Virus record (IMG/VR): IMGVR_UViG_2675903658_000006
DNA from: a virus
Lineage: Duplodnaviria > Heunggongvirae > Uroviricota > Caudoviricetes
Reading direction: 5' to 3' (one strand)
DNA length: 22,483 nucleotides
Shown: in pieces, positions 15,001 through 18,000 of the stretch
Numbering within the stretch: position 1 is the stretch's first letter
How the letters are laid out: every line of letters begins with the position of its first letter
Program-made: the position numbers

Positions 15001-18000
15001 TGGTGGTGATGCATGAAAAACAGAAGTGCTTATAAAACCGCATTATTAATGGCTAATGCAGGATACTGGTCAGTTGCAATACTGTTTCTCAGGAAAGCAT
15101 ACGGGAAATAACAAATGACACATGAACCCATTAATACATATCGTCGCCGTATAGCTGTTGCGGCACTCCATCGAATAAAACGTAAAACAGGTGGTAATCT
15201 GCTTATTGTTGACCTTCCGGATGGGAACATTACGACCATAGAAATAACTGAACAGTTTATAAACCAGTTGCTGTTACGCTTCGAAGGTATTACCCGTGGT
15301 GAATTGGGCCGGGTGGAGGGTGAAACCGAAATCCACACTGCATACCAGAATGCTATCGGGATTAATCAACATACTGAATACCTGACTGAAACCGGAAAGT
15401 TAATTATAGACAACCTTTTTCAAGAGGTTATTGATTACGCGAAAGAAAAATATATCAGCGGAGGAATTAACTGATGGCTAATTTATCCCCTGTATCTGTT
15501 GTGCACGAAAAAGTGCAGATCGTTATGACAATTGAAAATGGCCAAGTCACAGGTGTCTGCAAAGTCCGCGATGGCGAGCTGATTGCCAGCATGGATACAT
15601 TCATACGGCTGGCAGAAAGAGCGGGGTATCAGATAACAGCACCTGCTCAGGAGGAAACCGGTGGCATTAACAGCAACACGCATTCCTGAGCGGATCCACC
15701 GGCAGGCATTGCAGGTCCTGTTGTTGTACCGATGCCGACGGATATTTCCGCATCGGATACAGCGCACCGGATATCTCAGTCTGAAGGTTAACCGTCGCTG
15801 GCGGCTGTTATCGAAAGACGACGGCCGGAACTGGGAAGTAATGAGTCATGAACGTTATTCGGGAGAAATAAAGAAATGATCGACAACCGCACCGCCAGCG
15901 CCATTGACCAGGCATTACAGAAACATGATACACCCGTCGGCCCGTTATTTTTTGTAACACGCCACGGAAGAACAAAAAAATGCCTCACCCGAAAAACGGC
16001 AATTCGTTACCTGGCATTCTTTATGACCACCCGCGCTTTTGAACGTTCAGGATTCCGACAACGCTATCCTGACAAGCGTTTTATCTTCAACAGGAATGAG
16101 ATATGGAAACGTGGAGAATCAACCACAGAGTATACCCGCGCACACCAGCGAACAATCAGACGACTGCGCAGACTCATCGCCAGGAAACAGTATACAGAAA
16201 AATGGTTCAGAAAATATGACACATGGAGCGCCGGATATTACGAACTGATGGCAACAAAACCATTCTGACGTAAACGAAATTAACCATGACGCAATTAAAT
16301 AAGGCAAGCCGAATACATCAGGAGGACCATGAACATTTATTTCAGAATAGTTATATCACTGGCAATTATCACATGTATTTACGGATTAATCGTTCCGGCC
16401 CTCATATCAATGAAGGATACGGTAGCAGTGATTTCTGGCTTTGCTCTGGCGTGTCTGACCCCGCCCTGCATTTATGCCATTTATAAGGGTCTTTCTTTTT
16501 CTAAGGATAAAAGATGAAAAAATTACTTTTTGCTTTAGCCCTTGTTCTGCCGACCATTGGCCTTGTCGGTTGCGATCGCGTTGAGCCTGGTAATGTGGGC
16601 ATCAAAGTAAACAAACTGGGCGACGATAAAGGCGTCGGTGAAGTGGTCGGTGTTGGGCGCTACTGGACGGGATGGAACACTGAGGTTTACATCTTCCCGA
16701 CCTTTAAGCAGATGAAGACCTACGATGATCCATTCAGTTTCCAGATGAGTGACGGTACAACCATCGGCTATCACATCGGCGTGGCCTACAAAGTTGATCC
16801 ATCCAAAGTTACCACAGTCTTTCAGACCTACCGCAAAGGCGTGGACGACATTACCGACACCGACCTGCGCCAGAAGATAGCCGACGCACTCAACCGACTG
16901 GCCAGCAAAATGACCACCGACAAATTTATCGACGGCGGCAAGTCTGAGCTGCTGGATGCAGCTCTTAAAGACATTCAGGAAGAAATGACGCCCATCGGTA
17001 TTCAGGTAATGAGCCTCTCATATGTGGGTAAGCCGGAGTACCCGCCTACTGTTATCGACAGCATTAATGCCAAAGTCACGGCCAACCAGAAAACCCTGCA
17101 ACGCGAGCAGGAAGTCAAGCAACGCGAAGCAGAGGCAAACATGCTGCGCGCGGAAGCTGCCGGACAGGCTGATGCGATTCGCACAAAAGCCCAGGCCGAA
17201 GCCGACGCTATTCGTTTACGCGGTGAAGCTCTGCGCCAGAACCCAAACGTTATGGAGCTGGAAGCCATCAACAAGTGGAACGGTACACTGCCGCAATACA
17301 TGACCAGCGGTGCCAACACACCATTTATTCAGGTCAAGTAATACATATGCCCGGTATTACTCGCAGGGCTGTCTGGAGATAAAAATGAATACTGTAACCA
17401 TCAACAACAAACAGTTTCCGGTAATCGAATATCGCAGTCAGCGTGTTGTGACATTTGCAATAATTGATGACGTCCACCAGCGCCCGGAAGGTACCGCCCG
17501 TGCTGCGTTTAACCGCAACCGTTCTCACTTTATCGAAGGGGTGGATTTTCTTGAAATGACTGCGGACGTAATACGTACGGAGTCACTTTCTGATGCCTTT
17601 GCCGCGCGAACTGCCAAAGGGATCATTCTTTTCGAGTCTGGTTACCTGATGTTGACGAAGCCTTTTAACGATGCTCTTGCATGGCAGGTTCAGCGCGAAC
17701 TGGTTAACAGTTATTTCCGAACTCACGCGCCGCTGACGGAAATGGAGATGATCGCTGCAATGGCCGCCGATGCCGTTCGCCAGCAGAAGCGCCTGAGTCA
17801 TGTTGAAGAGAAGATCGAAACGGTCACCAAAGCTGTGGAGAACATCAAACGCGGCACAATGCGCACCGGATATGTCGGTTACCGCCAGGTGGTAGCCAAA
17901 AGCGGAATGAGTGACGCCAAGTGTCGGAATCTGGTCAACGCCTACCACATCCCTACCGACACGCACGAATTTATGACTCCGGACGGTCTGTTGTCTCGCA

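Follow-up and report, generated by a model that had tools for sequence, protein, structure and literature searches.

Two adjacent genes of a phiP27-like E. coli prophage, encoding a 62-aa membrane protein and a 275-aa SPFH lipoprotein, appear from comparative analysis to form an ancient, self-contained module in which the small partner is obligate. We propose that their products make up, as two subunits, a single membrane device, namely an SPFH cage that would stand on the periplasmic side of the cytoplasmic membrane, and we are inclined to accept this model as a whole. The pair is located in the repressor-to-integrase arm of the window, by which we mean the whole stretch of 22,483 nucleotides that was analysed. 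The relevant features, in window coordinates, are:

13380-14036, same strand as the pair: LexA-type repressor gene
16320-16325, + strand: Shine-Dalgarno sequence AGGAGG of the small ORF, read from the sequence just 5' of its first ATG
16329-16517, + strand: small partner ORF, 62 aa (ORF call)
16514-17341, + strand: SPFH/Band-7 lipoprotein ORF, 275 aa, with its start codon within the ATGA overlap
16514-16576, + strand: signal peptide and lipobox L-V-G-C (Cys20) with Asp21 at position +2, read from the sequence
16577-17137, + strand: SPFH domain proper, residues 22-208 (Pfam envelope)
17045-17239, + strand: single long Ala/Glu-rich helix, residues 178-242 (AlphaFold2 model), putative counterpart of the wall helix of SPFH cages
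17276-17293, + strand: C-terminal motif W255-N-G-T-L-P260, conserved family-wide, a candidate cage cap or closure element
20372-21977, same strand as the pair: xis and int

The small partner gene runs into the SPFH gene through an ATGA overlap, in agreement with the coupling of a tiny two-TM partner to the SPFH gene that had been proposed in an initial sequence-only reading of this DNA. That reading had also placed the pair in an early-left, pL-like arm; this is correct, because the pair is encoded between the LexA-type repressor gene and xis/int, on the same strand as both. The preceding gene ends at 16268, and from there to the pair a crude consensus scan detected neither a sigma-70-like promoter nor a + strand terminator. 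Simple consensus matching likewise gave no sigma-70-like promoter directly 5' of the cassette and no clear + strand terminator directly 3' of it in the window, in RCS47 or in P88; the matching being crude, the absence of a promoter belonging to the cassette itself is weak evidence. When compared with phiP27, the SPFH gene shows 54 synonymous and 7 non-synonymous codon differences, and the small gene 10 of each kind. The same prophage encodes a pertussis-like AB5 toxin.

A profile search confirmed that the larger gene encodes an SPFH protein: its product matches Pfam Band_7 (PF01145) with E = 8e-31 and 107.9 bits against a cut-off of 23.6, residues 22-208 spanning the entire profile, and it belongs to phrog_200, 'lipoprotein' (2.3e-115). 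The N-terminus, MKKLLFALALVLPTIGLVGC followed directly by D, consists of a signal peptide and a canonical lipobox with Cys20 and an Asp at +2; its layout, MKK-LLFALALVLPTIG-LVGC, matches the lipobox pattern [LVI][ASTVI][GAS]C. By the established rule of the Lol pathway, Asp at +2 is an inner-membrane retention (Lol avoidance) signal in E. coli. These features predict a lipoprotein kept at the inner membrane, on its periplasmic side, as the sequence-only reading had supposed. A lipobox is shared by 105 of the 120 closest homologues; in these the +2 residue is Asp 101 times and Glu 4 times. Most of 150 distant representatives also contain one. One clade of close homologues has Tyr in place of Cys and keeps the hydrophobic segment, so that the constant feature would be an extracytoplasmic membrane tether.

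The AlphaFold2 single-chain model of the 275-aa protein (mean pLDDT 86.8) comprises beta strands at residues 20-94, helices at 96-161, a strand at 163-175 and a helix of about 65 residues at 178-242. Over its full length, Foldseek matched this model to the cage subunits HflK/C, prohibitin, erlin, stomatin, flotillin and QmcA, with E-values from 5e-14 to 3e-8; prohibitin, erlin, stomatin and HflK/C matched the predicted fold equally, at 14-18% identity. The modelled fold is that of cage-forming SPFH proteins in general and does not single out HflK/C. Several alanines of the long helix are conserved (190, 206, 208, 215, 226 and 230). The WNGxLP motif is kept in 116 of 120 close homologues, and 40 diverse members all have W255 and G257, and nearly all have P260; by analogy, this motif may serve in closing a cage. 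Taken with the overall architecture, its conservation suggests that the SPFH protein would assemble into a large ring or cage.

According to the sequence-only reading, the protein may be a phage mimic or competitor of HflK/C, which would cage or release FtsH and so tune the stability of CII/CIII-like regulators and the frequency of lysogeny. This idea had already been suggested for Pseudomonas phages, and both the lysogeny hypothesis and the objection that lytic phages carry the gene were published in 2021 (PMC8540360). Our protein and the E. coli HflK/HflC-FtsH system (PDB 7vhp, 7wi3, 9cz2) share the SPFH superfamily, the same orientation with the SPFH domain in the periplasm, and a subunit layout of membrane anchor, SPFH1/2, long wall helix and C-terminal closure segment (Foldseek E ~5e-14). 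HflK is the best sequence match among solved structures (E = 2e-4, residues 114-241), and the weak NCBIfam matches are to HflC and HflK. However, the equivalog scores are far below their cut-offs (26 bits against 134.4 for HflC, TIGR01932, and 23.6 against 159.4 for HflK, TIGR01933), and HflK/C orthology was rejected on that basis; prohibitin, erlin and stomatin, moreover, are equally close in fold. Identity to HflK and HflC is 16-18%, and these proteins count 419 and 334 aa against 275 aa here. They are anchored by an N-terminal TM helix and ours by a lipid, and the K/C pair contrasts with a lone SPFH gene, whose neighbour is not a tandem paralogue but a 62-aa, non-SPFH hairpin, a dedicated two-TM partner that HflK/C lack. 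As for the regulators, the position of the pair between repressor and xis/int resembles that of lambda cIII, and the HTH protein adjoining the repressor matches a PHROG annotated 'CII-like regulator' (2.9e-40), but neither Pfam Phage_CII nor Lambda_CIII gave a match anywhere in the window.

The 62-aa protein, a member of phrog_1130, 'membrane protein' (1.5e-23), contains two hydrophobic helices and a Lys/Arg-rich C-tail. Summed over 20 partner sequences, K+R against D+E amount to 26:0 in the N-tail, 11:16 in the loop and 66:23 in the C-tail. Because of this charge distribution, and of the Lys/Arg-rich linker that precedes a signal-peptide-derived TM3 in the fused forms described below, we predict a two-TM hairpin of N-in/C-in topology whose conserved loop motif, P23-x-L-I-S27-x-x-D-T, would face the periplasm. 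Gly37, Ala41 and Pro45 of TM2 are conserved, and ten positions of the partner are invariant across its lambdoid, P2-like and P1-like versions.

Class II holins are proteins of ~60-70 aa with two TM helices, an N-in/C-in topology and a charged C-tail, a gross architecture that the partner shares if its predicted topology is right. The hairpin could thus be a holin- or pinholin-like protein that the SPFH cage restrains or organises in an antiholin-like manner, or the cage could stabilise the membrane until lysis; SPFH cages do work by sequestering membrane proteins (PMC13086221). We nevertheless consider a role in lysis timing very improbable. In every phage examined the pair is distant from the lysis cassette and lies amid replication genes, and holins, an endolysin and a lysis protein are already encoded elsewhere in the window, at ~3.5-5.4 kb. 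The partner matched no family annotated as holin in Pfam or PHROG, and the fusion of hairpin to SPFH anchor is more what one would expect of a structural subunit than of a lethal pore under regulation.

As judged by profile comparisons, the association of the small protein with the SPFH gene goes far beyond chance. A profile placed the partner domain (E < 1e-4) immediately upstream of the SPFH gene in 22 of 26 genomes drawn from many phyla, and the domain also adjoins the SPFH gene, upstream, in Fifi011, SSU5, 4MG and an uncultured 162-kb phage. Within the family, about 16 of 150 representatives carry it fused N-terminally and in frame to the SPFH protein (best E 8e-11, compared to 0.25 for the best match on reversed sequences used as control), and in-frame fusions were also seen at three loci (L099, L105 and L106). 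Stand-alone and fused partner domains align without gaps through their core, and the fused form was modelled as three TM helices followed by SPFH. There are exceptions: at two Sutterella loci no partner of the SPFH gene could be detected, and in Cupriavidus, Aurantimicrobium and phi1026b the partner gave a marginal match. A protein with the hairpin domain at its C-terminus (P0161) was discounted as a fusion, as it looks like read-through into a downstream small ORF. No third gene recurs beside the pair: among 145 neighbouring proteins from 13 diverse loci, no PHROG or Pfam family was found in more than 2-3 proteins, and the idea that a protease, FtsH or the like forms a conserved third member was rejected. 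In Erwinia phage Fifi011 a ClpP-like gene lies three genes upstream; it is absent from the other contexts examined. Our literature search returned no account of an obligate pairing or fusion of phrog_200 and phrog_1130, and this relation between two families that are catalogued separately and without function is apparently unreported.

An SPFH gene next to a co-oriented gene for a small membrane protein is also the arrangement of the SPFH-NfeD operons (QmcA-YbbJ, PDB 8z5g; YqiK-YqiJ; the archaeal stomatin pair PH1511-PH1510). QmcA-YbbJ is the closest functional analogue of our pair, by a likeness of organisation and not by membership. According to PMC13086221, Tan et al. 2024 reported its cage to be a 1:1 complex built of 26 heterodimers, a precedent for a 1:1 SPFH-partner cage. 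The QmcA cage faces the cytoplasm, whereas the one proposed here would face the periplasm and be lipid-anchored, and in some lineages our partner, unlike its NfeD counterparts, is fused N-terminally to the SPFH protein. The suggestion that the small protein is a minimal NfeD had to be abandoned. There is no room for an OB fold because the partner has only 62 aa with two TM helices, and it carries no ClpP-like protease domain. Pfam, NfeD (PF01957) included, gave no match at E <= 1 with the partner of the window or with any of 10 variants, and a PDB profile search with the partner, the YbbJ chain of 8z5g included, retrieved nothing relevant.

Relatives were found in 399 of 50,697 phage records (about 0.8%), and 535 of 5,426 complete E. 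coli genomes (~10%) carry the cassette; a scan of IMG/VR returned solely prophages that are 97-100% identical and was thus uninformative as to diversity. Representatives of the family number 3,067. The same cassette is common to lambdoid, P2-like and P1-like phages. It lies in the operon downstream of cox in P2-like phages and in the ban operon under C1 operators in P1-like ones, where it takes the slot of tciABC, annotated in the P1 record as 'tellurite or colicin resistance or inhibition of cell division'. In other phages the neighbours are genes for ligase, exonuclease, recombinase, dUTPase, ThyX, RNR, DNA polymerase A or primase. Carriers include groups regarded as virulent (N4-like, Vequintavirinae, Bruynoghevirus, Felix-O1-like phiEa104, phiCbK, jumbo and crAss-like phages), one archaeal virus, and environmental, plant-pathogen and Caulobacter viruses. 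Presence of the family is patchy within phage genera (PMC8540360), and a June 2026 paper termed the presence of SPFH in a phage 'unclear' (PMC13239085). Some family members are located amid ordinary cellular genes, and the function therefore need not be phage-specific. Hundreds of phage records annotate the gene, variously as lipoprotein, SPFH/Band 7, HflC/HflK-family lipoprotein, prohibitin-family or 'serine protease'; the last of these, although frequent, is unsupported.

This distribution is hard to reconcile with a tuning of the lysis-lysogeny decision through FtsH and CII. An identical cassette is found in P1-like and P2-like phages, whose switches to our knowledge do not use a lambda-type CII, and relatives extend to an archaeal virus and to numerous groups of phages that are considered virulent. 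This presence in lytic phages weakens the lysogeny hypothesis, and obligately lytic carriers are noted in the very paper that raised it (PMC8540360). Thus, from the HflK/C-mimic reading we retain the SPFH domain, the predicted periplasmic lipoprotein, the coupling and the early-left position, and we give up the NfeD kinship and the specificity for HflK/C and hold the role in lysogeny to be unlikely; the mimic as such is distinctly improbable. The module may still have a general effect on FtsH or act in exclusion at the membrane. The other function proposed at the outset, abortive infection, is less likely, because virulent phages carry the module and PADLOC gave no match.

A related possibility is that the prophage uses the pair to defend the lysogen, blocking other phages at the inner membrane by superinfection exclusion or abortive infection. 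The cassette behaves as a mobile accessory element, present on three unrelated temperate backbones and in the tciABC slot of P1-like phages, and its restriction to about a tenth of the complete E. coli genomes and its patchiness within phage genera are in keeping with such a role. Since the consensus scan predicted no + strand terminator in the interval from the repressor gene to the pair, expression in lysogens by read-through is possible; in lambda, rexAB is expressed in lysogens in this way, from the repressor gene. The layout of the pair also recalls T4 Imm and Sp, the products of early genes, of which one is a small inner-membrane protein with two TM helices and the other is anchored in the membrane and faces the periplasm; both exclude superinfecting phages at the inner membrane. 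The resemblance is one of layout only: Imm and Sp are not SPFH proteins, no relationship in sequence or fold is expected, and we know of no complex formed between them. Several observations disagree with lysogen defence, which we regard as rather unlikely. None of 5,027 PADLOC models (PADLOC-DB 2.0) matched at E <= 0.1 either protein of the pair or three neighbouring proteins, and a known defence system was rejected on these grounds. Our literature search gave no link between SPFH proteins and anti-phage defence. No promoter was predicted for the cassette itself, which lies inside repressor-controlled early operons, and its wide carriage by virulent phages counts against both a lysogen-specific role and primary abortive infection.

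The lipoprotein could instead act outside phage biology, as an inflammatory or virulence factor directed at the animal host and acquired by lysogenic conversion. A possible precedent is PM0222, an HflK/C-like SPFH protein from a prophage island of Pasteurella multocida, which is released in outer-membrane vesicles and activates TLR1/2, and whose deletion attenuates virulence (PMC9872710); the AB5 toxin of our prophage would be in line with such a role. Yet PM0222 may not belong to the present family, and TLR2 activation is generic to bacterial lipoproteins. Asp at +2 predicts inner-membrane retention and not surface exposure, and a role in an animal host cannot explain the environmental, plant-pathogen, Caulobacter and archaeal virus carriers. 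We find this explanation hardly credible.

In the two-subunit cage model that we favour, the 275-aa protein would be exported, lipid-modified at Cys20 and retained at the inner membrane through Asp +2. It would then oligomerise by its long helix and its C-terminal WNGxLP motif to form a closed dome above a patch of membrane. Because the lipid anchor spans the outer leaflet only, the 62-aa hairpin would be needed as a transmembrane palisade, a part for which HflK/C, prohibitin and stomatin use their own helices, and its conserved periplasmic loop would dock beneath the SPFH domain. Hairpin and SPFH subunits would be supplied at roughly 1:1 by translational coupling, and in other lineages by in-frame fusion. 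The timing of the cassette would be that of early operons under the repressor in temperate phages and of early or middle replication genes in virulent ones; as an apparently promoterless module in such operons, it would be made soon after infection or induction. The inner-membrane microdomain fenced in this way would alter what a host membrane component is able to do in the infected cell.

What we say of the client and of the module's biological role is guesswork. The sequence data do not tell exclusion, protease capture, anti-defence and lysis timing apart. Our preference, which is tentative, goes to a shielding of the infected cell's inner membrane from further insult, for example the entry of a superinfecting genome or membrane damage, in the manner of T4 Imm/Sp. 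Capture of FtsH or of another membrane protease comes next and seems to us rather unlikely. The phages that carry the module number in the hundreds, differ widely from one another and in many cases appear virulent, so the module probably serves as a general means of remodelling membranes during phage infection, and not as a lysogeny switch. A bolder proposal, which we advance with considerable doubt, is that of a widespread and hitherto unrecognised phage 'membrane takeover' device: a split or fused extracytoplasmic SPFH cage, deployed early by virulent and temperate phages of many families, would seal or reorganise the membrane, the hairpin being a new SPFH operon partner in place of NfeD. 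Such a device may block the entry of competitor genomes or neutralise effectors by which the host disrupts membranes in abortive infection, and the latter would be an anti-defence function.

SPFH cages (HflK/C, prohibitin, stomatin, flotillin, erlin) are a very active structural topic, and their roles in bacteria are poorly defined. The family described here represents a compact and genetically tractable SPFH system, with one 275-aa subunit and one 62-aa partner, that is dispensable for the host, and its natural fusions are ready-made single-chain constructs for structural work. A phage should not be classed as temperate because it has the gene. Should the module keep out competitors or counteract defences that target membranes, a new mechanism would be added to the conflicts among phages and between phages and their hosts. 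The choice of therapeutic phages would then be affected as well, as several of them carry the module, including the PAK_P3/KPP10 group and N4-like phages.

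The two genes of the pair are arranged as follows.
16329-16517, plus strand: hairpin ORF (62 aa), with AGGAGG ahead of its start
16514-17341, plus strand: SPFH ORF (275 aa), joined to the hairpin ORF by an ATGA overlap
The 275-aa protein matched Pfam Band_7 over the entire profile (E = 8e-31) and opens with a signal peptide whose lipobox, LVGC, stands directly before an Asp. In the Lol pathway of E. coli, Asp at position +2 keeps a lipoprotein in the inner membrane. The lipobox is present in 105 of the 120 closest homologues; position +2 is Asp in 101 of these and Glu in 4. In one SPFH clade (P0105-P0120), found on ~110-kb contigs from E. 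coli and Enterobacteriaceae, Tyr replaces the lipobox Cys (IIGY-DRVEPG) while the hydrophobic leader is kept; instead of being lipidated, these proteins would either stay attached through a signal anchor that is not cleaved or be released. The 62-aa protein contains two hydrophobic helices. Ratios of Lys + Arg to Asp + Glu over 20 hairpin family members (26:0 in the N-terminal tail, 11:16 in the loop, 66:23 in the C-terminal tail) indicate a predicted N-in, C-in topology with a short periplasmic loop. The ORFs, the Band_7 match, the lipobox, the +2 Asp and the hairpin charges thus show that the sequence-only reading had correctly described an SPFH lipoprotein with a two-TM partner, and that the pair is a real feature.

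The AlphaFold2 model of the SPFH protein (mean pLDDT 86.8) has an alpha/beta SPFH body followed by a helix of ~65 residues (178-242) and then a short helix; its tail is flexible. Foldseek aligned it end-to-end with the cage subunits of prohibitin, HflK/C, erlin, stomatin, flotillin and QmcA at 14-18% identity, HflK/C not being favoured over the others. By sequence, HflK was the best solved relative, weakly (E = 2e-4). Orthology to HflK/C was rejected, the equivalog scores being 26 bits for HflC and 24 for HflK against cut-offs of 134 and 159. These scores, the lack of a fold preference and the occurrence of the gene in phages regarded as virulent argue against the earlier proposal of a lysogeny-specific HflK/C mimic; the exclusion alternative put forward with it stands. 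The partner had also been likened to NfeD, which we discarded as the hairpin protein matched neither NfeD nor an OB fold nor any other Pfam family. A C-terminal WNGxLP motif has Trp255 and Gly257 invariant in 40 diverse members. From the SPFH domain, the fold, this motif and the non-NfeD partner, we conclude that the module pairs an SPFH protein with a partner from the same operon. In this it resembles QmcA-YbbJ, for which a cage of 26 heterodimers has been reported (PMC13086221), but it differs by its new minimal partner and by its predicted position on the opposite membrane face. The labels "serine protease" and "putative serine protease" are common in records of this family (AJ298298, LC5678xx, MK773491, KY555145 and others); Band_7 alone was detectable in these proteins, with no protease domain, and we think that the name was inherited from the old label "membrane protease subunit, stomatin/prohibitin homologue".

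The pair also occurs in phiP27, in the P2-like P88 (gp11 and gp12, again with an ATGA overlap) and in the P1-like RCS47, the small ORF lacking annotation in phiP27 and RCS47. Between backbones the hairpin proteins are only 22-24% identical and share ten invariant positions: the initiator Met1, Tyr4, Tyr18, Pro23, Ile26, Ser27, Val34, Gly37, Ala41 and Pro45. Among 1.84 billion representative proteins, searched exhaustively, 3,067 SPFH relatives were found (230 at E <= 1e-30), mostly lipoproteins of 275-295 aa. About 16 of the best 150 are longer (330-400 aa) and carry an in-frame hairpin fusion before the signal-peptide-like segment. A profile built from stand-alone small proteins only matched the fusion N-termini with E from 8e-11 to 8e-3 (best reversed-sequence E = 0.25), and the cores of fused and stand-alone hairpins aligned without gaps. 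With one genome per species, 22 of 26 loci have a hairpin domain immediately ahead of the SPFH gene, three of them as true in-frame fusions; these loci come from taxa including Enterobacterales, Xanthomonadales, Actinobacteria, Leptospirales, Eubacteriaceae, Saprospirales and Dependentiae. The pair thus forms a single, old unit. In the fusions the linker after TM2 is rich in Lys/Arg and so predicted to be cytoplasmic; TM3, the former signal peptide, would then run inside-to-outside and place the SPFH domain outside. Most fusions retain the Cys, raising the possibility of LspA cleavage into two parts. One fusion from a Eubacteriaceae MAG (L106, 4794-5795) has an in-frame internal Met-Lys-Lys start before the signal-peptide-like segment, so that this single ORF could yield both a three-TM fusion and a separate lipoprotein. 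In one representative, P0161, a hairpin domain follows the SPFH domain in frame (residues 265-344, starting at an internal MKKE). This reflects either reversed genes plus read-through or an artefact due to a frameshift, and if genuine it is at odds with the topology derived from N-terminal fusions. An IS1-like insertion exactly between the two genes, in Shigella flexneri (L085, 4230-5000) and one E. coli genome (L086), breaks translational coupling and adds 6 residues to the small protein.

A tblastn search placed relatives in 399 of the 50,697 phage records. Among the temperate phages that have one are phiP27 and Stx phages, P1 variants, P88, the phage-plasmid SSU5 and Burkholderia phi1026b; groups regarded as virulent are represented by, among others, Seunavirus 4MG and Klebsiella relatives, N4-like Erwinia and Escherichia phages, Bruynoghevirus, phiEa104, phiCbK, jumbo phage 7t3, Lak megaphages and crAss-like phages. 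A Halorubrum virus is also a carrier. The module occupies 423 chromosomal and 198 plasmid places in ~10% of complete E. coli genomes, and some SPFH-family loci resemble ordinary chromosome. Every cultured phage examined has the small hairpin gene ahead of the SPFH gene and none has a lysis cassette beside it; neighbours are ligase, exonuclease, recombinase, SSB and dUTPase. Uncultured members adjoin ThyX, ribonucleotide reductase, SegE homing endonuclease, dCMP deaminase, RNA ligase, DNA polymerase A and D5-type primase. No third gene recurs among 145 neighbours. Canonical P1 has tciABC in the cassette's slot, inside the C1-controlled ban operon, and a simple consensus scan of the three temperate backbones (the window prophage, P88 and RCS47) found no promoter-like site directly upstream of the cassette.

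SPFH ORFs were listed in T4-like phages in 2006 (PMC1524935). An HflK/C-like lysogeny role was proposed in 2021, the gene being also present in obligately lytic phages (PMC8540360), and SPFH presence in a phage was still called "unclear" in June 2026 (PMC13239085). A Pasteurella prophage SPFH protein, a possible member of this family, is a TLR1/2 agonist and virulence factor (PMC9872710). Our literature search found no published link between SPFH proteins and anti-phage defence, and no account of the hairpin partner or of the fusions. Both gene families are already catalogued (phrog_200, phrog_1130) and uncharacterised. What is new is that the two genes are obligately paired and in some cases fused, the topology predicted for their products, and how broadly virulent phages carry them.

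The window prophage is phiP27-like and lambdoid, with an integration site adjoining yecE/yecN, and around the pair it is 100% identical to the E. coli O2:H1 HM670 chromosome. Its relevant features are:
5364-6710, minus strand: pertussis-like AB5 toxin
5922-6710, minus strand: A subunit, with Pertussis_S1 and Scabin-like ADP-ribosyltransferase domains
5364-5789, minus strand: B subunit (RefSeq name: subtilase-family AB5 binding subunit)
6881-7228: antiterminator Q, with the AB5 toxin just downstream
8592-9901: IS3-family element, 1,310 bp, with 25-nt terminal inverted repeats
8634-9524, minus strand: its orfB
9521-9847, minus strand: its orfA
13380-14036, same strand as the pair: LexA-type repressor
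14133-14549, plus strand: HTH protein directly downstream of the repressor
17385-18134, plus strand: ORF6N-domain protein (KilA-N / antirepressor-like DNA-binding domain), just downstream of the pair
18131-18700, plus strand: 189-aa protein, weak match to the DNA polymerase III beta clamp central domain (E = 0.005)
20372-20608, repressor strand: xis
20664-21977, repressor strand: int
The repressor is followed by ~15 small genes, xis and int, all on one strand; replication genes, Q, toxin, lysis genes and terminase run in the opposite direction. The HTH protein matched phrog_4836 "CII-like regulator" (2.9e-40) and gave no Pfam Phage_CII match; it sits on the repressor strand, a position different from that occupied by lambda cII. 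The toxin sits where phiP27 has stx2e. The IS3-family element, which we take to be IS629-like, interrupts the primase gene, leaving a zinc-ribbon piece (9899-10366) and a Toprim piece (8085-8558). HM670 does not carry this insertion, and the split probably makes the present copy of the prophage replication-defective.

The best-supported reading is that the pair builds an SPFH cage on the extracytoplasmic side, of which the lipoprotein would form the dome and the hairpin the transmembrane fence. This cage would be produced as part of the early lytic programme and would alter a host membrane function. An exclusion-like role in protecting the membrane of the infected cell seems to us more likely than FtsH capture; roles in anti-defence, lysis timing or lysogenic conversion are less likely.
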